From the UHGV virus genome UHGV-0082263: a DNA stretch of 10,840 nt; one strand, written 5' to 3'. Within the stretch, counting starts at the first letter, position 1; every line of letters starts with the position of its first letter. This DNA is from a virus. The notes beneath the pieces were generated by a model, which worked only from the letters and a program-made list of their open reading frames with translations, searched no databases and was not told where the DNA came from. Position numbers and translations under genes: made by a program. Below, piece after piece: positions 1 to 10,786 of this stretch.

Positions 1-600
1 ACGGAATAGAGATAACACGAGGAGTGGTTAGAAATGGCTAAAGTTCTGGTGCTTTTACATAGCTAAACACGTACATTCAACTACCTGTTAATAACAGGAC
101 AATATCAGGTGAATCCCTATTCAATTTAAAGGCATTTTCCCAAGTATCTAAGCAGTTTTACACAGATTCTATGCAGTTGGTCACTATCAATATTCCCTCA
201 AAGTGACTATCAAGCTGCTTAACAGTTTTCCATGTGAAAATGTGATGAAGGTTTCTTGAGGTGGGCTTAACAGATGCTATGAAGAAAGTCAATAGATATT
301 TTAAAATTCTGCAAAGGGGGTCACATAGCTGGTGTGACAGGTACTTAGCAGCTACAGACATCTGTCTGATATTTTTGAAGATTCGGGGAAGATGAGATTC
401 AAAGAGGGCTAGTCATTTTTTATAAAAATTTTCAGAGTCTGAAAAGTTACTGTACAGATTTTGCACAATCTTACCAAGCCTCATAGTTGATTCGATTAGA
501 AGCTAATCTCATAGAAAGCTCTGTAGAGAGTTTTAACCCCATTTTTAGGGGTAGTCTATAGGTATGTACCAACCATCTTAAAATAAGGTGGTAAAATCGC

Positions 601-630
601 TTAGAATGCGTTACAGAGCGTCTGAGAAGC
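601..630 (+). repeat. Repeat element E1 (ttagaatgcgttacagagcgtctgagaagc), core CGTTACAGAGCG
   Basis: Its reverse complement (gcttctcagacgctctgtaacgcattctaa) matches 4049-4078 at 27/30 positions: 16 identical, a 4-nt block with 3 mismatches (gtaa vs caat), then 10 identical. Lies in a region with no convincing CDS. Confidence 0.75.
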
Positions 631-749
631 TATATTCACAGATTTTACTAAAGTCTCAGACTTTCTAAGTGGTCTTTTTAACAGGAGGGGTTCCTATGGT
701 CATTATCACCCTCTCTCTCGCTTAGTGAGCTACACAGACCTAGAGAACA

Positions 750-766
750 TGCTCTGTAACGCCTTC
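750..766 (-). repeat. Repeat element E4, partial inverted copy of the E1 core (tgctctgtaacgccttc)
   Basis: Matches the reverse complement of E1 at 15/17 positions, including the 12-mer gctctgtaacgc. With E1 it forms an inverted pair about 120 bp apart. Confidence 0.6.
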
Positions 767-1176
767 ACAAACATTGACTAAGGTCAACTTCATAAACTCA
801 GAGTTAAGTTACCTTGAAAGATTCTACCAAGAAACTACACAGGTGTTATTTAGTCTGACTGTGAAGGGATATTTAACGGGAGAAGAGATACGATATAACC
901 CGAAGGGAGAGTATCATCTTAACAATTATCTTAAGAATAAAACTGAAAAGTTCTTAACAGATGACTACCTAGAAAGAAGGGAACGATAAGACCAGAGGTA
1001 GTGACCTTGTTAAGTAGGTCGTTTCAAAGCCTCTTAAAAGTCTGTTAAGTAAGGTCATATGAACAATCATACCATTTTGTCAAGTGTTTTGTCTTTAGCA
1101 AAAAGTGCTAAACTCAACAAAAAGCACTAAATGCTAAAGAGACGATTAAGAAATATACTAAGAGGGCGCTTCGCTT

Positions 1177-1845
1177 GTGTCACATCCAATAATCAATATC
1201 GGTCGTTATCATGGTGGTTCTGATGACTGGCGTACACCGTATCGTTTATTTCGTAACCTACACCGTGAATTTGGTTTTACGTTAGATGGTGCCGCAACTA
1301 AGCATGACGCATTGCTACCACGGTTCACCGATGATATAAACCGTCAATCATGGGTTGGTGAACGGGTCTTCGTTAACCCGCCGTTTAGCATGGCTGAAAA
1401 GTTCCTCCTAAAAACCCCTGAAGCTGATGTGTGTGTATGTCTGGTTCCGCACAGGTCAAAGACAACTTACTGGCTTCGGTGTGTATATACAAACCCCTTT
1501 CTGCATGAGATTCGAACGTTACACCGAGCAGTCAAATACCTTCCACCAGCAGGGAAGAAAGGTGTTGTAGCGCGTTCACCGTTTGCAAGTTGCGTCCTAA
1601 TATACAGGAACACACCCCGTAAACCGAAGGTTGAAATTACCCAGACAATTTATTGTGGCGACACAATGCTTTTACTTGCCGTGGTTAACAGGGGTGGTTT
1701 ACGTGGAAGACCTCATATACACGATGCACAGACGCTTGACAGGTTGATTAAAATGTATGACCAAGAACAATCCATCAAGAGCATCGCAGAATCGCTAAGA
1801 ATGCCTCTAAGCACCACTTACAGGACTGTTCAAAGGTTGGGCTGA
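1177..1845 (+). CDS. Phage Dam-family DNA N6-adenine methyltransferase with C-terminal resolvase/Hin-like helix-turn-helix
   Basis: 222-aa ORF, GTG start at 1177 with AGAGGG at 1161-1166, stop TGA 1843-1845. Translation has WRTPYRLF near the N-terminus, FTLDGAA, and the catalytic NPPFS motif (D/N-P-P-Y/F), the pattern I recall for phage Dam-type methyltransferases. The last ~35 aa (LDRLIKMYDQEQSIKSIAESLRMPLSTTYRTVQRLG) resemble the Hin/resolvase-type HTH. Recognised from memory, no search run. Confidence 0.8.
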   Translation: MSHPIINIGRYHGGSDDWRTPYRLFRNLHREFGFTLDGAATKHDALLPRFTDDINRQSWVGERVFVNPPFSMAEKFLLKTPEADVCVCLVPHRSKTTYWLRCVYTNPFLHEIRTLHRAVKYLPPAGKKGVVARSPFASCVLIYRNTPRKPKVEITQTIYCGDTMLLLAVVNRGGLRGRPHIHDAQTLDRLIKMYDQEQSIKSIAESLRMPLSTTYRTVQRLG

Positions 1846-1891
1846 AATTCTCATATAGAGCACTGATTACGAGAATGTTAAAGAGGCGATT

Positions 1892-1914
1892 CCCCCCTCT
1901 CTGGGGTTATTCGC
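1892..1914 (+). repeat. Direct repeat copy 1 (cccccctctctggggttattcgc)
   Basis: Imperfect direct repeat of 2061-2083 (ctccctttctggggttatcgcc). Shared core is a C/T-rich tract followed by TCTGGGGTTAT and CGC. About 170 bp apart, in the 850-bp non-coding stretch downstream of the methyltransferase gene. Confidence 0.6.
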
Positions 1915-2060
1915 TTTTTACTGGAAGGGTTATTTTACAGAGGTTTTTCAAACCCCCTCAATAATAGAAACGAGCAACAAACGAAGAGCGAGAAATAAAA
2001 TATTGAGACTGGTGAACGGGGTCTGTAAAGATTGTTTAAGAAGTCGGTTAAGAAGGTGGC

Positions 2061-2083
2061 TCTCCCTTTCTGGGGTTATCGCC
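2061..2083 (+). repeat. Direct repeat copy 2 (ctccctttctggggttatcgcc)
   Basis: See copy 1. It is followed by cttagtgag (2090-2098), which also occurs at 720-728 right after another CCCTCTCTC tract (709-719). Confidence 0.6.
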
Positions 2084-2309
2084 TTGTATCTTAGTGAGTC
2101 CAGGAAGTTCTCTGTGAAGGGTCTTGTCAGTCCTTTATATTGGCTAATTACAACTCATTGAAAAATAAGTATTTTTAGAAATTACTGTCAGAGAGGTGAA
2201 TACTTGATAGATACAGCTTTCCGGTTCTGTCAAGCTGTTTTTTTAATAGATAGCACAAAATGCTAAAGATGCCCCTATACCATCACGTACAGGGGGTTTT
2301 GAAGGGAGT

Positions 2310-2498
2310 TTAACGGGGTTCTGTGTGGTTATCTGTTCGAGTCCTGTCCTTGAGGTCAAATGACCATTCACGACCAAACAATCGGAACACGATAAACACC
2401 CGAACGATGAAATAGCGGAGCAGAAGATCTGCAATCAATCCAATACCTCCACCAGCCCATACATCAGGTGACCCCAGCTCAGGAGGGAGATTTACCAT
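2310..2498 (-). CDS. Hypothetical small protein with one predicted hydrophobic helix (low confidence)
   Basis: 62-aa ORF on the - strand with ATG at 2498-2496 and AGAAGG 8 nt upstream on that strand. Translation contains GGGIGLIADLLLRYFIVRVFIVFRLF. Divergent from the 2699 gene. No motif recognised; could be spurious. Confidence 0.2.
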   Translation of the reverse strand: MVNLPPELGSPDVWAGGGIGLIADLLLRYFIVRVFIVFRLFGREWSFDLKDRTRTDNHTEPR

Positions 2499-2593
2499 TC
2501 AATGTACCTTCTGTGTGCAATGCAAAAACATGTGACCAAATACATAGCCACGCTTCATATTTCCCCCTCTCTCATAAACCATTATACCACAAA

Positions 2594-2613
2594 TGTTACG
2601 AATTTGTTACGAA
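2594..2613 (+). repeat. Tandem direct repeat TGTTACGAA-tt-TGTTACGAA (11-bp period)
   Basis: Two exact 9-mers at 2594-2602 and 2605-2613, immediately upstream of a -35-like TTGACA (2619-2624). Confidence 0.6.
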
Positions 2614-2618
2614 AATAC

Positions 2619-2660
2619 TTGACATTAGTCTTTGAAAATGCTAGTATTGTATATATAAGT
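2619..2660 (+). promoter_or_regulatory. Candidate sigma70-type promoter for the 2699-4041 cassette
   Basis: TTGACA at 2619-2624, 17-bp spacer, TAGTAT at 2642-2647; an AT-rich TGTATATATAAG tract at 2648-2659 is an alternative -10. Lies 40-80 bp upstream of ATG 2699. Hexamer match only, not validated. Confidence 0.35.
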
Positions 2661-2698
2661 TAACAGAATAATAACATCTTATGAGAGTCGGAACATGA

Positions 2699-3253
2699 AT
2701 GAGAGACGCAGAATTTAGAGCGATGCTTCAGGCATCGAGACAACGTAACAAGCACAACTCCTACGCTTACACAAACAACCCAACCAGCTACGAACTACCC
2801 AAGCTCACCAAGAAAGAACGCAAAGGCATTGACGAAGTAATTCGTAGCATTACGCCACGAGACAGATTTATGCCAACCAGAAAGAGCACCCAGAACACTA
2901 TTAAAAATTATCTGGCTAACTTTGATTCTTACGAACAATTACCAAGTAAGATTGAAGATGTAATTATCGGATTCTGTAGAAGTGAAGGCCACCCCAAATA
3001 CAACAGAAAGCTATTTTATCTGCTAAAGAATCTTGATGAAATTAACTCAGCTACCGTGACAAATCATCTTCAGCGTCAAGCAACCAGACTTAGCTACGAA
3101 TTACCAACCGATGCCTATTGTGCATTGCTTGCTGTAATGTGTGCAAAGCTAATTGGTATTGTTGAACATCATATTGCCGTTGGGAATATTGAGCCAATGG
3201 AAAACGAGCAACCAGACTTTGAGTTTGACCCGTATATTTTGGAGGAATTTTAA
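2699..3253 (+). CDS. Hypothetical protein (184 aa), first gene of a four-gene coupled cassette
   Basis: ATG 2699, stop TAA 3251-3253, 1 nt before the ATG of the next gene. SD is weak (GAGAG at 2683-2687). Acidic C-terminus (EPMENEQPDFEFDPYILEEF). No motif recognised. Confidence 0.55.
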   Translation: MRDAEFRAMLQASRQRNKHNSYAYTNNPTSYELPKLTKKERKGIDEVIRSITPRDRFMPTRKSTQNTIKNYLANFDSYEQLPSKIEDVIIGFCRSEGHPKYNRKLFYLLKNLDEINSATVTNHLQRQATRLSYELPTDAYCALLAVMCAKLIGIVEHHIAVGNIEPMENEQPDFEFDPYILEEF

Positions 3254-3254
3254 A

Positions 3255-3542
3255 ATGAAAACCAGACACACACTAACCAGAGTTACAAAGACAGCCTTTG
3301 AAGAACTTAACAAAATTAAGAAGGTTACAGGTCTTTCACATGCAGCAGTGATGAAGCTTGCAATTAACCGTGATATTAACGAGCAGGATTTGCTTAATAG
3401 TCGCTTAGAGGCAGCAAGACACCATATCAGGATTAAGCAAGATGACCTTGATAGTCTGAAATCTTTAAATGCTTTTGGACTGGATTTAGCAAGGTTGCTA
3501 AGCATCAAAATTCACAAGTTAAAGTTAGAGATGGGGGTCTGA
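3255..3542 (+). CDS. Putative ribbon-helix-helix (CopG/Arc-like) DNA-binding protein, 95 aa (tentative)
   Basis: ATG 3255 with GGAGGA at 3241-3246 (8-nt spacing). I chose this start over the track start at 3153, which would overlap the upstream gene by 100 nt. The N-terminus TLTRVTKTAFEELNKIKKVTGLSHAAVMKLAI fits the strand / helix / G-x-S turn / helix pattern of RHH folds. Pattern-level only. Confidence 0.5.
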   Translation: MKTRHTLTRVTKTAFEELNKIKKVTGLSHAAVMKLAINRDINEQDLLNSRLEAARHHIRIKQDDLDSLKSLNAFGLDLARLLSIKIHKLKLEMGV

Positions 3543-3757
3543 TGCTATGCGTTACCTTTGAATACCACACGGATAAAATGATTCGCTACATCTCCGACCT
3601 CCTGATTAAAGGAAACGGATTCGGTGACATCCATAACTCAAAAGATATTTTCATTAAAGCCATTGGCCCAAATGAAGCACTGAAAACAGCAGTTAAACCG
3701 GAATGGTTTGAGCGTCACAAGATTGAATTAGGTTATTGGGGTGAGGAGGTTTTATGA
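3542..3757 (+). CDS. Hypothetical protein (71 aa)
   Basis: ATG 3542 overlaps the upstream TGA (tgATG); G-rich tract at 3533-3537. Its stop overlaps the start of the next gene (ATGA at 3754-3757). No motif recognised. Confidence 0.45.
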   Translation: MLCVTFEYHTDKMIRYISDLLIKGNGFGDIHNSKDIFIKAIGPNEALKTAVKPEWFERHKIELGYWGEEVL

Positions 3758-4041
3758 AACCTTGGCATGAAGATGTTAGACGATATTTTACAGAACACCT
3801 TATCTATGATGAATCCAGTGATTCCCTGTGCTGGTCTGATGGAGAGTCAGTCACGATAAATACCGACGACTACGGCAACAAAACATTTAATATAGGCCGA
3901 TATACTTTCTACGTGAAATATGTTGTCTGGTTCCTTTATCATGGCTATCAATCCAACAAGCAAATTATCCATCGAAATGGTAACAGAGCCGATACCAGAC
4001 CAAAAAATCTTATGCAAGTCCGAGACTTTAAGAGAAATTAG
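3754..4041 (+). CDS. Small HNH endonuclease (HNH_3-like, phage/homing type), 95 aa
   Basis: ATG 3754 with GAGGAGG at 3743-3749, stop TAG 4039-4041. The C-terminal IIHRNGNRADTRPKNL matches the H-x-N-G-N ... D-x-R-x-x-N-L core I recall for the HNH_3/AP2-type family. No search run. Confidence 0.55.
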   Translation: MKPWHEDVRRYFTEHLIYDESSDSLCWSDGESVTINTDDYGNKTFNIGRYTFYVKYVVWFLYHGYQSNKQIIHRNGNRADTRPKNLMQVRDFKRN

Positions 4042-4048
4042 AAAAACA

Positions 4049-4078
4049 GCTTCTCAGACGCTCTCAATCGCATTCTAA
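4049..4078 (-). repeat. Repeat element E2, inverted copy of E1 (gcttctcagacgctctcaatcgcattctaa)
   Basis: 27/30 identical to the reverse complement of 601-630. Starts 8 nt after the HNH stop codon. Confidence 0.75.
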
Positions 4079-4149
4079 CGCAAAAAACTATCTTATTTTA
4101 GGGTGGGTAATACCACTGTACAGGCTACCCCTGAAAAAGACTGTTTAGC

Positions 4150-4172
4150 TCGTTACAGAGCGATTGAGGAGG
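4150..4172 (+). repeat. Repeat element E3, degenerate direct copy of E1 (tcgttacagagcgattgaggagg)
   Basis: Contains the exact 12-mer cgttacagagcg; about 18/23 identical to E1 608-630. Forms an inverted pair with E2 across ~70 bp and ends just upstream of the SD of the 4198 gene. Confidence 0.6.
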
Positions 4173-4197
4173 TCTGGTAAAAAGGAGATTTTAAGAA

Positions 4198-4503
4198 ATG
4201 AATTATTCAATGCAAGTTATGGTTGACCAAGAAACTATGAATTGGCTTAATGACCTGAACAGGTCAGGCTTTAATATCTATTTCATGCATTGTTTTGAAG
4301 CATCAACGTATATTGACAAGCATATAATCAACGAAATTAAACTTGGTGACTTTGTTCACAAACTGGAAGTAACAGACCCAGACTACAAGAGATTTATCAC
4401 AAGCGAATGCAACCGACTTGATTTAAGCCCGGAGCAATTATTGAAGCTGAATGTATTCTTAACCTATCAGAATGAATTAAACCCTTACAGTGAGGTGATG
4501 TAA
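4198..4503 (+). CDS. Hypothetical protein (101 aa)
   Basis: ATG 4198 with AAAGGAG at 4181-4187, stop TAA 4501-4503. No motif recognised. Confidence 0.5.
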   Translation: MNYSMQVMVDQETMNWLNDLNRSGFNIYFMHCFEASTYIDKHIINEIKLGDFVHKLEVTDPDYKRFITSECNRLDLSPEQLLKLNVFLTYQNELNPYSEVM

Positions 4504-4580
4504 TGATGCTCGTTATTCTCTGGACGGCTTTAGGGTTATTTGTTGGTTGCTGGGTAGGTAATACGGTAAATAAGAATTGA
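4503..4580 (+). CDS. Small hydrophobic peptide (24-25 aa), possible membrane peptide
   Basis: Tandem ATGs at 4503 and 4506 overlapping the upstream TAA; GAGGTG at 4492-4497 (5 or 8 nt spacing); stop TGA 4578-4580. Translation MMLVILWTALGLFVGCWVGNTVNKN is one hydrophobic helix plus a short polar tail. Below the length cutoff of the ORF track. Confidence 0.35.
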   Translation: MMLVILWTALGLFVGCWVGNTVNKN

Positions 4581-4604
4581 TGTTACCAATCTGTTAAAAA
4601 GCTG

Positions 4605-4633
4605 TTGACAAATAACCTTAAGCATGACATAAT
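4605..4633 (+). promoter_or_regulatory. Near-consensus sigma70-type promoter (TTGACA - 17 bp - CATAAT)
   Basis: Perfect -35 TTGACA at 4605-4610, exactly 17-bp spacer, -10 CATAAT at 4628-4633 (5/6 to TATAAT). Predicted start about 4640. First downstream gene with an SD is at 5034. Confidence 0.5.
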
Positions 4634-4642
4634 TTTAATTAT

Positions 4643-4659
4643 AGAGAGAATTTCTCTCT
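4643..4659 (+). promoter_or_regulatory. Perfect palindrome AGAGAGAA-t-TTCTCTCT at the predicted transcript start (operator candidate or 5-prime hairpin)
   Basis: 8-bp arms with a 1-nt centre, beginning about 10 nt after the -10 hexamer. Confidence 0.45.
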
Positions 4660-4808
4660 TATTTCTTTCAACAATTCCATCTACATCTAGGGATAGTTAT
4701 TCTGAAAGGTGCAATGCTTTTCGCTACATGGCCTCTTATATAACCTGAGAGGCTATCTCGAAAAGTCTTTGTTCATTCATTCGTTTGAATCCTTTACAGC
4801 TTTGCCCT

Positions 4809-4836
4809 GATTCATGATTAGGGCTTTCTTTAAGAG
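4809..4836 (+). repeat. Leader direct repeat copy 1 (gattcatgattagggctttctttaagag)
   Basis: About 25/29 identical to 4913-4941. Confidence 0.55.
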
Positions 4837-4912
4837 TTTTTAAACAGAGCTTTTAAAGAAAGTTTTCCTGAAACTTCGTTAACGTTATAAGCAAACCTTC
4901 AAAGCCCTTCAC

Positions 4913-4941
4913 AGATTATGTTTAGGGCTTTTCTTAATAGA
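4913..4941 (+). repeat. Leader direct repeat copy 2 (gattatgtttagggcttttcttaatagag)
   Basis: Direct repeat of 4809-4836. Its 3-prime end overlaps the 13-mer tcttaatagagca (4932-4944), whose perfect reverse complement tgctctattaaga lies at 4993-5005. Confidence 0.55.
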
Positions 4942-4992
4942 GCATCTTTAATAAATCGTTAAGTCATCTTCTAAGTGTATTGGCGTTGAAGG

Positions 4993-5005
4993 TGCTCTAT
5001 TAAGA
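4993..5005 (+). repeat. 13-bp perfect inverted-repeat partner (tgctctattaaga) of 4932-4944
   Basis: Exact reverse complement of 4932-4944, 48 bp away and about 15 nt upstream of the SD (AGAGGA 5021-5026) of the 5034 gene. Confidence 0.6.
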
Positions 5006-5033
5006 AATAACCACACACTTAGAGGAAAAAATA

Positions 5034-5744
5034 ATGACAAACGATATTTACATTAATGGCAAAGTGATTGATAGCTTCGGTGACTGGTCGCCACAGACTG
5101 AACATCCAGCTATCACTATCCAGCGCAAAGAACACGATGAAAGAATTGCACTTGAGCAAGAGTTAAAGATGTCACCAAAGGTAATTTCCTTTGTGTCTCC
5201 TGAGCCTCAAGAGATGCCTGATGTATGCAAAACTGAAGCATTACTTGAGCTTGAGCGTGAATATTACCCACAGTTAAAAGCACAGCGTATTAAACTTGAT
5301 GACGCTTACAGCAAAGTTACCCTGATGCAATCAGCTATTGAGCCGTCAGAATTTGAGATTCAGGATGAATTGTCACAGAAACCATTTGTCTATTACAAAT
5401 ATGAAGACAATGATGGTTTTGGTACTTTTCCTGAGAATATCCCAGACGTGATTAATAATCTTTCTGACGGATATCGAATTGTGAAGATGGTTAAGGCATC
5501 AAGAGGTGCTGGTCAGTTTATCTACATGACCAATAAAAGCGATGAAGAACTCTGTGAAATTGCTAAACAGAACATCTTGGCATCACGTAACAAGCAGCTT
5601 GATAGTGCTAAGTTGTATCTCTCAAGAGAGCTTCAGGCTATGAAAGAGCTTGTGAAAGAATATGAAGATGCTAAGAAGGTTGCTATGCAGGCTGATATTG
5701 AGCAGCTTACGAAGATTTCTCAGAAATATGCAAAGGCTATTTGA
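5034..5744 (+). CDS. Hypothetical protein (236 aa), first gene of the operon containing the tape-measure gene
   Basis: ATG 5034 with AGAGGA at 5021-5026, stop TGA 5742-5744. Acidic, helix-rich C-terminal half. No motif recognised. Confidence 0.6.
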   Translation: MTNDIYINGKVIDSFGDWSPQTEHPAITIQRKEHDERIALEQELKMSPKVISFVSPEPQEMPDVCKTEALLELEREYYPQLKAQRIKLDDAYSKVTLMQSAIEPSEFEIQDELSQKPFVYYKYEDNDGFGTFPENIPDVINNLSDGYRIVKMVKASRGAGQFIYMTNKSDEELCEIAKQNILASRNKQLDSAKLYLSRELQAMKELVKEYEDAKKVAMQADIEQLTKISQKYAKAI

Positions 5745-5752
5745 GGTGATTA

Positions 5753-6169
5753 ATGAGTCCTATTTTTTATATTCTTAGAAAGAAGTTTGATGCTATCGAT
5801 GAGATTACCGGATATCTTCGTGAACGTATTTACGAAGGTGAGTCTCTGGAAGATTTAAAATTTGATGGTCGAGATGACTTAACTTTCCTGATTAGGGATG
5901 TTAATCGGGATATTGAGCGATTAAGAGATAGTTATAATCCACCAGAAATTACTGAAATGATAGACTTTGATGATGGAACAAGAACTATTAGCGTAGCGAT
6001 TGGTGGGAGTTACATCAGGGACTTTACCAGTAAAACTAATGAAGAGTTACTTGCTGAATTTAAAGATGACTATCTAAAAAATCTCGATTCTTATCAGGCA
6101 GAATTAGATAAGCGGTATCGGGATTTAGCTGGAAAAGGCTACTTAATAGAGGAATTGCTGGACTTCTAA
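5753..6169 (+). CDS. Hypothetical acidic protein (138 aa); tail-assembly-chaperone-like by position only
   Basis: ATG 5753 with GAGGTG at 5743-5748. Acidic composition and a position two genes upstream of the tape-measure gene fit a G-type tail assembly chaperone, but no motif supports this. Confidence 0.5.
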   Translation: MSPIFYILRKKFDAIDEITGYLRERIYEGESLEDLKFDGRDDLTFLIRDVNRDIERLRDSYNPPEITEMIDFDDGTRTISVAIGGSYIRDFTSKTNEELLAEFKDDYLKNLDSYQAELDKRYRDLAGKGYLIEELLDF

Positions 6170-6192
6170 TTGAAACTAATGTGAGGTGGTGA

Positions 6193-6411
6193 ATGATTGA
6201 TTTAACAGAACGCTATGAGCTTATTAAAGCAATTAGTGAACGATTGAAAGAACAACCCAACAAACCAAAGCTACGAATTGGAAATCAACGTCGAGTTATC
6301 ACCTCACACAAACCAAAGGTACGTAAGATTCCTTCATGGTGCTTAGATAAATTACCATGTGACGCACAGATTTTAGGTGATGATGGGATGTATTCTTACG
6401 TTTACCATTAA
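6193..6411 (+). CDS. Hypothetical basic protein (72 aa)
   Basis: ATG 6193 with GAGGTGG at 6183-6189. No motif recognised. Confidence 0.45.
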   Translation: MIDLTERYELIKAISERLKEQPNKPKLRIGNQRRVITSHKPKVRKIPSWCLDKLPCDAQILGDDGMYSYVYH

Positions 6412-6454
6412 TTTGAGATTAGCTTCTAATAGAATTGGTTGGGTAAAAATCTAC

Positions 6455-6495
6455 GGGAGAGATTATCGAGTGACATCGGTAGCCCTCCCTTTTTT
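6455..6495 (+). terminator. Possible intrinsic terminator or attenuator hairpin followed by a T6 run
   Basis: GGGAGAG (6455-6461) pairs with CCCTCCC (6483-6489) with one mismatch, then TTTTTT (6490-6495). The 21-nt loop is atypically long, and the site sits inside an apparent operon. Confidence 0.25.
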
Positions 6496-6545
6496 GTATA
6501 TGAGGATAGTCTTCTATCCGAAGTCTATGAGGTGAAATATGAACA

Positions 6546-8717
6546 ATGGCACAGTTTAAAGTTGATGATTTTCTGATTGAGTTAAGTTTTAACTCTCAGA
6601 AAGTTTTAAAAGGTCTGGAAAAAGCCGAGAAACAAACGATGCAGGTAGCATCACGAATTGAGAAGCGATTGAATAAGGCGTTTAAAGTGAATCCTACGCC
6701 TTTAAATGATTCTCTCAAACTAATGGAAAAGAATGTCGATAAAACTGTTTCCAAGATTGAGCAGCGTCTTAAAAACACTAAAGCGTTTAAGATTAAAACT
6801 GAAATTGAGGATACTCTAAAGCCACTTAGACAGCCAAGACAGCCACGAATTAGCGGCAACAGAGCAATCACAGCAGCGCATAGCGTGAATATGTCTAAGC
6901 TTGGTGATATTAATCCGCTGATGGCTAAAATGTTTAAAGCACAGTATTACAGCTTAAGCGGTAAGGCTGGTAATATTGGAAGTGAAAAGTTTAACGCTGA
7001 ACTTGCAATATTAAATCAATCTCTTCGTGAAACGTTGAATAAACTCAGGTCACAGACAAAGACCACCAGCATTAACAATACAAGCGACGCATTTAATAAT
7101 CTTGCAAGCAATGCAATCAAGTTATCTGGTGCATTTTACTCTGTGATGGGTGCTCTTAACGCTTACAAGGCCATCATGAATGCAGGTCTTAAACGAGATT
7201 CCGCACAGAGAGCCGCTAAGTTTGTACTTGGTGATAAAGCATCTGAAGCTGAGGTATTTATTCGAAATTTAGCAGACAAGACAGGTCTTAATATCTCTGA
7301 AGGGCTATCAAGCTACGCTAAGTTTGCAGCAGGTGCTCAGGGTTCTATGTCACAGGAACAGACACAGGAGCTATTTGGTAATGCAACGGCTATGAGTCGC
7401 TTAATGGGGCTTTCTAACGATGAGCTAAACGGCATTTTGAAAGCTTTTGAGCAGATGGCGAGCAAGGGCAAGATTCAGGCTGAAGAGCTTCGTGGACAGT
7501 TGGGTGACCGTATGGCTGGTGCATTTAAGCTATTCGCTGAAGCATTGGGTATGACTGCTACAGAGCTTGATAAAGCGATGAAAGACGGGAAGATTTTAAG
7601 TAGTGATACTCTCCCTAAAGTCGCTAAACAGATGGGCTTGATGATTGATAAAGCGGGTGGCTGGGCTGAAGTCGCTAAGAGCACTCAGACAGCTTTAGGG
7701 AAACTGGCTAACAACTGGGATGATACGATGGTGAAAATCTTCTCAGGTTCACAGGATGAGCTAAACGGCTTCTTATCCAGCCTGAGTAACCTGCTTAGTG
7801 AAATGGGGATGAGTTCTTCTATCGCTGGTGATGCTATCGGTGGACTTATCGACATGCTTAAAGCTGGTGTAGATGACATCCGTATCTTTAACAATCACCT
7901 TGAAGGCTGGATTTTACAGACTAAGAAGTTCTATTACAGCCTTGATGACACTAAACGAAAACTACTTGATGAAGTCGGTGATGGATTTATCAATTTTGTC
8001 AAAGGTCTTGCTATAGCGTTATCTGCAAAGACGCTATTCAGTGCCACTACAGGGATTATGAACCTGACAAGAGCAATCACAACGTTAGGTACAAGAGCTA
8101 ATCAGGTGGCTGGTCAGGTAGCTACTGGTAAAGGTGGTGGAAAACTGAAAGGTGTAGCTGGTGGTGTAGGTAGTGCTCTTGCAATTGGTTATGCTGATGA
8201 CGGTTATGAAACAGCGTTAGCATTAGCTTCAATGATTCCACAAATCAGAGGCGTCACTCTTGGTTTATATGCATTGAAGAAAGCACTGGATTTTATGAAT
8301 CAGGAAGTAGTCAAAAACGCTAATATGCATCCATCTGGGGTAGGTGTGGGTAGTGACTTTAATCCTGTGTATTCTGGTGACCCTAATAAACCGAATATGA
8401 TTAACGAAGGATGGAGTAGAATTTTTAGTTCAATGGGTGAATTGTTTAACAATGCCACAATGAATATTGCAAGATTCAATCATCCAGAATTGATTACCAT
8501 GAAACAAGATGCATCATTAACGAGCACTGACATCCAAAATCTAAGAGATGAAATTAGTGCTTTAAGTAAGCGTATTCAGGAGCCTGTGAAAGTTTCACTT
8601 GGTGGTGAAGTTGCCATTAAACCAGATGAAACCAGCTTTATGACCTTTAGCAGTAATATCTACGACCAATATGCAGAAGCTACGTTATTAAGTTCATCAT
8701 TCCCAGAAGATGATTGA
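6546..8717 (+). CDS. Phage tail tape-measure protein (723 aa)
   Basis: ATG 6546 with GAGGTGA at 6529-6535, stop TGA 8715-8717. The central segment LNGILKAFEQMASKGKIQAEELRGQLGDRMAGAFKLFAEALGMTATELDKAMKDGKILSSDTLPKV matches the conserved tape-measure domain signature as I recall it. Also has a glycine-rich hydrophobic stretch (GKGGGKLKGVAGGVGSALAIGY) and a long helical N-terminal region, both typical of tape-measure proteins. Confidence 0.8.
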   Translation: MAQFKVDDFLIELSFNSQKVLKGLEKAEKQTMQVASRIEKRLNKAFKVNPTPLNDSLKLMEKNVDKTVSKIEQRLKNTKAFKIKTEIEDTLKPLRQPRQPRISGNRAITAAHSVNMSKLGDINPLMAKMFKAQYYSLSGKAGNIGSEKFNAELAILNQSLRETLNKLRSQTKTTSINNTSDAFNNLASNAIKLSGAFYSVMGALNAYKAIMNAGLKRDSAQRAAKFVLGDKASEAEVFIRNLADKTGLNISEGLSSYAKFAAGAQGSMSQEQTQELFGNATAMSRLMGLSNDELNGILKAFEQMASKGKIQAEELRGQLGDRMAGAFKLFAEALGMTATELDKAMKDGKILSSDTLPKVAKQMGLMIDKAGGWAEVAKSTQTALGKLANNWDDTMVKIFSGSQDELNGFLSSLSNLLSEMGMSSSIAGDAIGGLIDMLKAGVDDIRIFNNHLEGWILQTKKFYYSLDDTKRKLLDEVGDGFINFVKGLAIALSAKTLFSATTGIMNLTRAITTLGTRANQVAGQVATGKGGGKLKGVAGGVGSALAIGYADDGYETALALASMIPQIRGVTLGLYALKKALDFMNQEVVKNANMHPSGVGVGSDFNPVYSGDPNKPNMINEGWSRIFSSMGELFNNATMNIARFNHPELITMKQDASLTSTDIQNLRDEISALSKRIQEPVKVSLGGEVAIKPDETSFMTFSSNIYDQYAEATLLSSSFPEDD

Positions 8718-8812
8718 TTTAACGGTGTTCTACGTGAATAAAGCAAAGTTAATACCCACACTGAAAAATAATTTTTACGTAGCTCACGCTTAACAGAGAA
8801 AATACTTATATA

Positions 8813-8856
8813 TCAAAGGCTTGGTTAAAAATGATTAAAATACACTAAGCCTTTGA
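8813..8856 (+). promoter_or_regulatory. 10-bp inverted repeat (tcaaaggctt ... aagcctttga) with 24-nt AT-rich spacer, just upstream of the SD of the 8874 gene
   Basis: Arms at 8813-8822 and 8847-8856 are exact reverse complements; the SD AAAGGAG at 8861-8867 follows. Confidence 0.4.
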
Positions 8857-8873
8857 AATCAAAGGAGAATTTA

Positions 8874-9662
8874 ATGATTTACACTAATCAAATCCGCTAC
8901 AGTGGCAAAGATGGCATCTATTTCCACTTAAGAGATAATGTAGATGCCTTCTTAACCCTATCAGCAACTGAGAACATGGAATTTGATAGTCCTATGCAGG
9001 TAACTACACAGAATATGCAATCAGGGCAAACAGTCACAGATAATGTGCAAAGAGCACCCAGAACAATCACTATTAGTGGTGTCGTCGTAGTTGGCTATGA
9101 AGGGAGCTTATTACTAACTCGTCAAGGCCAATTAGTAGAGAACTTCATCGACACTCTTGAAAGCTGGCGTGACCAGAAGCAGATTATTTCGGTCATCTGT
9201 AAAGATGGTATCAAGATTGATGATTCCATTATTACGAGTTTTAAAGCCTCTAAAGATGTTGGTATTTCAAATGGTCTAAGAATCCAGCTAACTTTTCAGG
9301 AAATTAACTTCAAAGCTGTTGTGGGTCAAACTGATATCTCGGCTGCAACTGGAAAGGCTGCCACTACGAATGATGGTGGTGTGACCAGTAAGAAGAATGC
9401 AGGTAACGTGACCACTGAACGCAATAACGCGCCTATGCTATCGTGCAAAGAGCTAATGAGTATTAGCGATGTATCCGGTTACGCTCCAGCTATCAGAAAT
9501 GATATTCTCGATGCTCAGATTAAGTGTAATAAGGCTTGGAAGCTGGACTATTCAGACTTAACAGAAGCTGAAAAAACCAACGTCACCAATGCTAATAGTA
9601 ACGCTGGTCGAGTAGCTTCAAAGCTTAAAAAGTACTCAGTGAACCCTAATAAAAAATACTAA
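8874..9662 (+). CDS. Hypothetical protein (262 aa); possible tail or baseplate component by position
   Basis: ATG 8874 with AAAGGAG at 8861-8867, preferred over the track TTG start at 8853. Stop TAA 9660-9662 overlaps the stop of the convergent recombinase gene. Sits directly downstream of the tape-measure gene. No motif recognised. Confidence 0.55.
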
Positions 9663-10786
9663 GCGTCCACCTCTTCCATATCACCAGCAGGATAAATCCT
9701 TGTTACTGGTTCACCAAAAATAAGCATATCATCTAATGACTGCATCTCATCGGTTGCTTCTTCAAGCGTTAAGGTGTGGTCATCTTTACCATCAAGAGGA
9801 AAACCACGAATCATATTTCCATTGTGAAGATATATATCCACCAGCTTTTCATTACCAGAAACAACAATCTCTTTCACCAGACGCTTAATGATAATCTGGG
9901 CTTCAGTTCTCCCCTCTACAGACTCCATATCAAGACCGCTTAAATCCAAGCTTGATACAGATTTTACCCTCGCCTTTTCTCGTGATAACTGAACTATCAG
10001 TTCATCTTTTTCTTCCTGTTTAACCCGTAGTGCTTCCTGAATCTGAGTGATGTTAGGAAGCTGTATCAGCGTCTCAGTGAGTTTTTCCAGTTCACCATCA
10101 ACGGTGTTTAATCTTCTTTGTAGTTCATCTAATTTAGCTGTATCGGTAGCTTCATCGTGTAGCTGTGACAGTTTGCTGAACAGACGACTACAAAGCTGTG
10201 TATCAAGTAACTTTCTGGACACTGTACCGTAGCTACAACGGGACTCCTTATTACCATTGCAACGGTAAGTACCTTGATAAACGGGTTTACGTATCCCTGT
10301 AGGAGTCATTACAAGCCCACACTTACAACGGATAAGCCCCTTCAGTATGTTCACATATAGCCAGTGTTCACCGCTGGATGTTTTCCCCTTCCCTGTTTCC
10401 TCTAACAGTTGCTGTACAGCGTAAAACTTAGAATCTGTGACAATCTGAGGATAGAACCCTTCAATTTCTTCACGTAACACTGTTTTACGGTCTTCTGTAG
10501 AAATCTTGGCGGGAAGGTAACCTAATACACTTCGTGAAGTCAGGATGTGTTTAACGCTTAAAGCTGACCAGTTACCATCCGGTTTCTTAGTCTTGGATAT
10601 TCTGACCTTACGCTGATTAATGGTCGGGTAACCTTGTTCGTTTAGCCATTTACAGATAGCAAACATCGACATACCAGAAAGACGCTTGTCATAGATGATA
10701 TTCACCAGTGACGCTTTATCTTCATCAACGATGTAGTGTGAACCGTCTTCTGATAGCTCTAACCATCCGGGGGCTTGCTTACCCAT
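9659..10786 (-). CDS. Large serine recombinase, recombinase-domain + zinc-ribbon + coiled-coil portion (375 aa); N-terminal catalytic domain not in this ORF
   Basis: Translation opens with GKQAPGW...[37 protein letters not shown], which looks like the start of the recombinase domain. It then has [16 protein letters not shown]...[21 protein letters not shown], the four-Cys zinc ribbon typical of large serine recombinases, and a long coiled-coil-like C-terminus. No resolvase catalytic motif is present. An in-frame TGA (10796-10798) lies 3 codons upstream of the ATG and no SD precedes the ATG. Confidence 0.8.

Follow-up and report, generated by a model that had tools for sequence, protein, structure and literature searches.

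The Dam-HTH gene is a real, intact gene on a chromosomal island of Escherichia coli, and its product joins an orphan N6-adenine DNA methyltransferase and a serine-recombinase-type DNA-binding tail in one polypeptide. The gene was identified in UHGV virus genome UHGV-0082263, the analysed stretch of which (10,840 nucleotides) is referred to below as the window; the coordinates of its features are collected in Table 1. Our preferred explanation, held with middling confidence, is that a minimal methyltransferase with no recognition domain gained a recombinase-type arm and helix-turn-helix (HTH) that read DNA or anchor the enzyme on it, and that this enzyme is carried as accessory cargo on an island resembling Felixounaviruses.

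Table 1. Features of the window, with the cargo slots of four sibling islands in the last row
Feature	Position	Strand	Remarks
Non-coding element	285..460	.	In all six E. coli islands examined; shared with Felixounavirus wV8
8-bp perfect inverted repeat TTTTCAGAGTCTGAAAA	429-445		Within element 285-460
Inverted pair of 19-nt motif TCTTTAGCAwwwwGTGCTA	1092..1140 (1092-1110, 1122-1140)	.	37-85 bp upstream of start
Shine-Dalgarno-like AAGAGGG	1160..1166	+	10 nt 5' of GTG; from sequence
Dam-HTH gene	1177..1845	+	222 aa, GTG start, TGA stop
Methyltransferase core, aa 15-145	1219..1611	+	Pfam PF05869
Motif I / SAM-binding FTLDGAA, aa 34-40	1276..1296	+	
Catalytic motif IV NPPF, aa 67-70	1375..1386	+	
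Clade-specific core extension, aa 146-171	1612..1689	+	Beta-strands predicted at 155-159 and 166-171
Arm RGGLRGRPHIHD, aa 172-183	1690..1725	+	Homologous to GxxGRP minor-groove arm of Sin/resolvases
Three-helix HTH, aa 184-222	1726..1842	+	Putative recognition helix 211-221, S-T-x-Y-R signature
Third copy of 19-nt motif	2251..2269	-	Also conserved in islands without Dam-HTH
HNH_3 endonuclease, 95 aa	3754..4041	+	Not a restriction partner
Tape-measure protein (723 aa) and gp74-like 269-aa protein	6546..9662	+	Felixounavirus gp73-gp74 order
Large serine recombinase, C-terminal part (375-aa ORF)	9659..10786	-	Recombinase and Zn-ribbon domains
Left-end cargo slots compared	L001 8582-9130; L006 568-1092; L007 5074-5625; L005 4084-4917		

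Architecture of Dam-HTH

The GTG at 1177 is the earliest start codon possible for the reading frame and is preceded by a Shine-Dalgarno-like sequence, in agreement with the GTG start given in the initial annotation, and the Dam motifs listed there are likewise all present (W18RTP21...LF25, F34TLDGAA40 and N67PPFS71). The chromosome of E. coli TUM1886 matches the window at 99.8%, and its RefSeq record has an identical 669-bp CDS labelled 'DNA N-6-adenine-methyltransferase'. The fusion is already detectable in database annotation as precomputed PF05869 and PF02796 matches, and some NCBI records of the protein carry the name 'helix-turn-helix domain-containing protein'. In the literature on the architecture and on PF05869 specificity we found no study of this combination.

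Residues 15-145 match PF05869 (Dam) with 49.8 bits, above the gathering cut-off of 28.1, and the same family is matched by 15 of the 16 members of the full-length Dam-HTH clade. The protein also matches PHROG 111 (DNA methyltransferase; 6e-26) and is placed by PADLOC in the class orphan MTase. In an 82-sequence alignment of the family, F34, D37 and A40 of the SAM-binding motif and N67-P68-P69 of the catalytic motif are nearly invariant. The core thus looks like a minimal SAM-dependent N6-adenine methyltransferase of gamma-class-like fold, whose intact motifs predict catalytic activity. No homology was found to the alpha-class E. coli Dam/T4 Dam family (MethyltransfD12, PF02086), and the score against TIGR01712 (phage_N6A_met) is 38 bits against an equivalog cut-off of 97.05, the match being limited to residues 15-82.

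The phage Dams of PF05869 and TIGR01712, which share the WxTP, FxxDxAA and NPP(F/Y) core motifs, are likewise orphan enzymes on enterobacterial mobile elements. However, they are single-domain proteins that end near residue 150, whereas Dam-HTH adds a 26-aa extension and a 51-aa arm and HTH, so that with 222 aa it exceeds the compact format of the family (about 140-190 aa). Identity to the phage members of PF05869, which we take to include M.EcoVT2Dam, T1 Dam and HP1 Dam, is about 30%, a level from which neither a GATC nor a non-GATC specificity can be inferred. A gamma-class-like methyltransferase fold normally depends on a separate target-recognition domain, and the canonical 140-190-aa members of PF05869 have none. 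In the gamma-class N6-adenine enzymes M.TaqI and M.BseCI recognition domains are large (about 150-250 aa), C-terminal and of a fold unrelated to the HTH. M.EcoGI and M.EcoGII were considered as relatives and set aside as a functional precedent only, M.EcoGII having been placed in the beta class (PMC7544214).

Four independent lines of evidence (clade-wide profile matches, a search with the tail alone, a structure model and a profile comparison with a sibling-island resolvase) agree that the tail is a resolvase-type HTH. In the tail of the window copy, the matches to HTH_7 (resolvase HTH, residues 177-216; E 0.0033) and HTH_23 (E 0.0011) are both below threshold, but HTH_7 is matched by 13 of the 16 full-length clade members (best E 8e-7) in an alignment that reaches down to 42% identity. 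When a profile of residues 168-222 alone was searched against solved structures, it matched the Sin/Bin3 resolvase (E 1.3e-6), the DNA-binding domain of gamma-delta resolvase (E 1.9e-5), Tn3 resolvase (E 4e-5) and the PAI subdomain of Sleeping Beauty (E 6e-5). The alignment with Sin places RGGLRGRPTIY of Dam-HTH opposite KGVYKGRPLLY. An AlphaFold2 model made from a diverse alignment of 82 sequences reached a pLDDT of 91 and a pTM of 0.83, whereas 23 close homologues gave a core pLDDT of 48 only. It predicts a core to about residue 171, a linker at lower confidence (172-183, pLDDT 69) and tail helices at 184-195, 200-206 and 211-221. Searched as a whole against the PDB with Foldseek, the model matched generic methyltransferase folds only. 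The initial annotation had read the tail as a resolvase/Hin-type HTH and proposed profile searches and structure prediction as checks. Both support it: PF05869 lies above its cut-off, HTH_7 is found in most of the clade, and three helices are predicted over residues 184-221, in line with the matches to the resolvase structures.

Dam-HTH has the C-terminal HTH_7-type DNA-binding domain and GRP arm of small serine recombinases, and with Sin/Bin3, gamma-delta and Tn3 resolvases and Hin it shares the GxxGRP arm, the three-helix HTH and the S-T-x-Y-R/K recognition helix. Unlike these proteins it lacks a resolvase catalytic domain along with the serine nucleophile, and has the module attached to a methyltransferase instead. 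Since the Resolvase catalytic domain (PF00239) gave no match and the N-terminus is a methyltransferase, Dam-HTH is no recombinase. The C-terminus of the small resolvase that adjoins Dam-HTH in one sibling island is related to the tail profile in hhalign (89.5% probability, E 2e-6), while BLASTP found no similarity between Dam-HTH and the small resolvases of sibling islands. A recent domain swap with a resolvase of the same slot was therefore rejected, and homology detectable only at the profile level indicates that the fusion, or any shared origin, is old.

The recognition helix is nearly invariant across the clade, and both the arm from R172 to P179 and the junction NRGGLRGRP are invariant in 23 alleles of the E. 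coli clade. The tail matches the core in conservation, mean pairwise identity among E. coli alleles being 0.80 in the core, 0.84 in the arm and 0.77 in the HTH. This bears on the idea that the methyltransferase is inactive and the protein a DNA-binding regulator or an accessory factor for island recombinases, as might be suggested by the small serine recombinase with a homologous HTH that some sibling islands hold in the same slot. We regard it as highly improbable, because equal conservation of core and tail argues against it and the family-invariant SAM-binding and catalytic residues are all retained across the clade.

Distribution of the fusion and the island that carries it

When 1.84 billion cluster representatives were searched exhaustively with HMMER, 2,505 relatives were found. 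About seven clusters (P0122, P0123, P0125, P0127, P0130, P0132 and fragments) match through residue ~221; the others are 140-190 aa long and match residues ~12-150 only. The fused form is found in Escherichia and Shigella and also in Pseudocitrobacter, Winslowiella and Erwinia, at 42-55% identity (44-48% in a genome scan with an alignment-based query of 7 sequences). The initial annotation had named two findings that would overturn its reading. The first, that the tail is the normal C-terminus of the family, is contradicted by nearly all of the 2,505 relatives, which end near residues 145-150. The second, that the tail is a separate gene joined by a frameshift or sequencing error, is refuted by the present results and can be given practically no probability: the reading frame is unbroken in the window and in 211 complete genomes (220-222 aa), the fusion recurs in the other genera, and the junction NRGGLRGRP is invariant within the E. 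coli clade.

The fusion is present in none of 50,697 phage records, in which every Dam match stays under 60% identity (the matches listed lie at 28-34%), falls short of 80% query coverage and stops before the HTH; the tail alone, searched against the same records, gave nothing relevant. None of the best 80 matches in IMG/VR extends into the tail, and viral structures in BFVD match the core only.

The window holds no restriction gene by open reading frames, Pfam, PHROG or PADLOC, nor an adjacent methylation-dependent endonuclease of the kind that defines a type II restriction-modification system. The HNH_3 protein is 100% identical in two sibling islands without Dam-HTH (L001 and L006) and so cannot be a methylation-dependent partner, which bears out the initial description of the enzyme as an orphan. 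Another candidate partner, orf71 (774-989), was rejected: its identity is 62% as protein against 86% as DNA, RefSeq does not annotate it, and it is probably non-coding.

The window corresponds to an island of ~11 kb (1-10786) flanked by ymdF and wrbA. With related islands in mdtG and near yecN, the family uses at least three integration sites. The island core segment was found in 460 of 5,426 complete E. coli genomes (~8.5%; 509 copies, always chromosomal) and the Dam-HTH gene in 214 of the 5,426 (231 copies, all chromosomal), while roughly 250 genomes have the island and lack the gene, so that the gene is common yet accessory. It lies at the integrase-distal end, in a variable left-end cargo slot that in sibling islands is occupied by a small serine recombinase (Resolvase and HTH_7), by an HNH-AP2 protein or by unknown proteins; a resolvase and Dam-HTH adjoin each other in L007. 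A Pseudocitrobacter island of similar layout uses a tyrosine integrase instead of a serine recombinase and also has Dam-HTH, an HNH protein and a homologue of the tape-measure gene.

Positions 7450-9400 are about 90% identical at the nucleotide level to some Felixounaviruses, including phages ECOH1 and SapYZU01, while the product of the 269-aa gene shares 73% identity with gp74 of wV8. The other island proteins have no homologue in wV8, and the remaining island genes gave no Pfam, PHROG or PADLOC match. A small chromosomal island with just two Felixounavirus tail genes is unusual. A 236-aa protein (5034-5744) is called 'transposase' in several RefSeq genomes, a label that looks unsupported, as the protein has no match in these three resources either. 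Downstream of Dam-HTH is a gene-poor spacer of 850 bp (1846-2698) with the only GATC of the island (2426), a small minus-strand ORF (2310-2498; hypothetical in RefSeq) and a strong sigma-70-like site, TTGACA-17-TAGTAT (2619-2647), 5' of the next operon. Scans of the window for Rfam families, tRNAs and tandem repeats gave nothing relevant.

The large serine recombinase of the window lacks its N-terminal catalytic domain, apparently cut off by an insertion sequence (IS) at the window end. At the near-identical TUM1886 locus the recombinase ORF is followed by ISEc12, on the far side of which is the 549-bp N-terminal piece. The integrase of the window copy thus appears to be IS-disrupted, and this island is probably immobile.

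With an integrase, tape-measure and gp74 homologues, 39% GC, and both an avoidance of GATC and palindromes and a non-coding element shared with the phages, the island family resembles, as far as genes and composition can tell, a satellite of FelixO1-like phages. Like PLE of Vibrio cholerae and PICMI, both satellites of virulent phages, it is small and integrated, encodes a large serine recombinase, is helper-like in composition, and has a few helper-derived genes beside variable accessory cargo. To our knowledge, a tape-measure gene together with a gp74-like tail gene is not a described feature of the PLE and PICMI families. In the literature on satellites of FelixO1-like phages we found no paper describing these islands as such. 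A methylome study of O111:H- STEC describes Phi9, a prophage region of O111 strains that is devoid of CTGCAG and classed as 'unclassified Myoviridae' (PMC6602927). O111 genomes are among our island matches (H80-H83), and Phi9 may belong to the present family, having been binned as a prophage remnant.

GATC avoidance and the specificity of the enzyme

The target of the phage Dams, GATC, is almost missing from the Dam-HTH island, which has one site (at 2426) against about 47 expected; the other two sites of the window lie beyond the end of the recombinase ORF, probably within the interrupting IS. Islands without Dam-HTH have none against 46 expected, and the flanking chromosome is normal (0.66-0.89). 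The comparison covered window positions 1-10786, L001 8001-19222, L007 5000-12642 and wV8 (L087 and L168). The wV8 genome has no GATC in 88,487 bp, with 298 expected, and its GC content is 38.9%, that of the island being 39.6%; absence of GATC has been reported for the genus Felixounavirus (PMC4690856, PMC5477317). Of the 64 six-base palindromes wV8 lacks 27, and 24 of these are missing from the island as well. Together the 27 account for 6 sites in the island against 43.6 expected, a ratio of 0.14 compared with 0.58 in the flanks. The sibling islands without Dam-HTH show the same pattern of palindromes and GATC. An avoidance signature common to the island and virulent phages suggests that the island, like a satellite, may travel as unmodified DNA through the same host range.

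None of five E. coli alleles of the Dam-HTH gene contains GATC, although 8.7 sites would be expected among them, whereas the homologues in Pseudocitrobacter, Winslowiella and Erwinia have 2-5 sites. The GC content of the gene, 44-46%, lies between that of the island and the approximately 50% of these homologues, as would fit a gene that came from a higher-GC source and then underwent partial amelioration and purging of GATC. The homologous islands of these three genera have a normal GATC frequency, with no depletion, which limits the GATC argument to the E. coli lineage.

It is rather unlikely that Dam-HTH is an ordinary GATC Dam, its HTH merely raising DNA affinity or processivity and its substrates being host or invading DNA rather than the island. 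The E. coli host already has Dam, a GATC-specific enzyme would be nearly substrate-free on the island and on FelixO1-like phages, and the score of 38 bits falls far short of the TIGR01712 equivalog cut-off of 97. Moreover, a resolvase-type arm and HTH with an invariant S-T-x-Y-R helix is what would be expected of a sequence reader and not of a generic clamp. In its favour, the databases label the protein simply a DNA N-6-adenine-methyltransferase, GATC is normally frequent in the homologous islands of the three other genera, and the specificity of M.EcoVT2Dam is GATC (PMC6602927). The initial annotation had argued for something other than plain GATC methylation, and this has indirect support. 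With one GATC on the island and none on FelixO1-like phages, the enzyme cannot serve to methylate GATC on its own element; a non-GATC specificity does not follow from this, given that M.EcoVT2Dam is a GATC enzyme.

Under our preferred explanation, in which the gained module reads or anchors on DNA, the HTH would dock in the major groove and the arm would track the adjoining A/T-rich minor groove, as in resolvase-DNA complexes. Docked in this way, the tail would keep the catalytic domain tethered near adenines about one helical turn away, and may thus serve the methyltransferase as a target-recognition or anchoring module. As neither the island nor FelixO1-like phages contain appreciable GATC, the methylation that matters biologically is probably not at GATC of the element. 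It would be at another motif, by which island DNA is protected or marked, or at GATC in other DNA.

Upstream motifs, the phage-shared element and a possible role

The 19-nt motif that lies as an inverted pair ahead of Dam-HTH has four matches in the window against 0.38 expected, and each of three copies contains the palindrome TAGCA-N5-TGCTA. In the window copy the pair is a candidate operator, but as a general operator of the gene the motif was rejected: although statistically real, it occurs in islands without Dam-HTH, and the upstream pair is missing at four other Dam-HTH loci (L003, L004, L005 and L007). Islands that lack the gene (L001 and L006) have kept the downstream copy just as those with the gene have, and it therefore probably binds a core island or helper factor rather than Dam-HTH. 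No 8-mer is common to at least four of five divergent Dam-HTH upstream regions, and no candidate DNA site co-occurring with the gene was found.

These results bear on autoregulation, in which the HTH would regulate its own or another island promoter and the specificity of the methyltransferase would be independent of the tail. There is a precedent in M.SsoII and M.Ecl18kI, which also combine a methyltransferase and a separate, transcription-regulating HTH in one polypeptide (PMC3978073, PMC2760811), and the inverted pair close to the start, with its third copy downstream, is what such a system might look like. However, these are C5-cytosine enzymes of restriction-modification systems, with an N-terminal HTH and a defined operator in their own promoter, whereas Dam-HTH is an orphan N6-adenine enzyme whose HTH is C-terminal and of recombinase type, and a conserved operator was not found for it. 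The absence of the pair at other Dam-HTH loci, the persistence of the downstream copy where the gene is missing, the lack of a shared 8-mer despite a nearly invariant recognition helix, and the orphan state, with no restriction partner needing timing control, all argue against it. We therefore think autoregulation unlikely, and the suggestion of it in the initial annotation is not supported, as the motif pair is not linked to the gene and the divergent upstream regions have no motif in common.

The non-coding element is 70% identical to wV8 14903-15059, within a 1.6-kb gene-free region of the phage, and includes blocks identical in island and phage, for example ATTTTATAAAAATTTTCAGAnTCTGAAAAGTTAC. 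It is single-copy in both, and some 150 bp separate it from the Dam-HTH start downstream of it in L004, L005 and L007. Shared non-coding sequence is also present at 977-1029. An RNA structure in the element was considered and rejected, having no covariation support. The element is a candidate for a shared origin, packaging site or regulatory site.

Returning to a tail that reads DNA, we can speculate further that the recombinase module was co-opted as a target-recognition domain and directs a long or bipartite non-GATC m6A mark, which an as yet undescribed family of E. coli satellites, dependent on virulent FelixO1-like phages, would use to shield satellite DNA from restriction once transferred or to mark a cis-element. 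This more specific proposal is distinctly improbable as it stands, a shade more so than either an ordinary GATC Dam or autoregulation. The single-copy non-coding element shared with the phage is a candidate for the cis-element, and its methylation could contribute to hijacking the helper.

If the HTH sets specificity, Dam-HTH would be a naturally modular methyltransferase, consisting of a catalytic unit of ~170 aa and a recombinase-type reader of 50 aa. It would then give insight into how minimal methyltransferases find their sites and offer a template for engineered site-directed m6A writers. If the enzyme is an ordinary GATC Dam, the finding shrinks to a minor variant of domain accretion. 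The main interest lies in the GATC paradox and the island context, which the initial annotation had missed, rather than in the fusion itself. Around one in twelve complete E. coli genomes has an island that is free of GATC, poor in palindromes and equipped with Felixounavirus tail genes, in what looks like an unrecognised satellite family of virulent phages, and Dam-HTH, present in nearly half of these islands, is the most tractable handle on their role.
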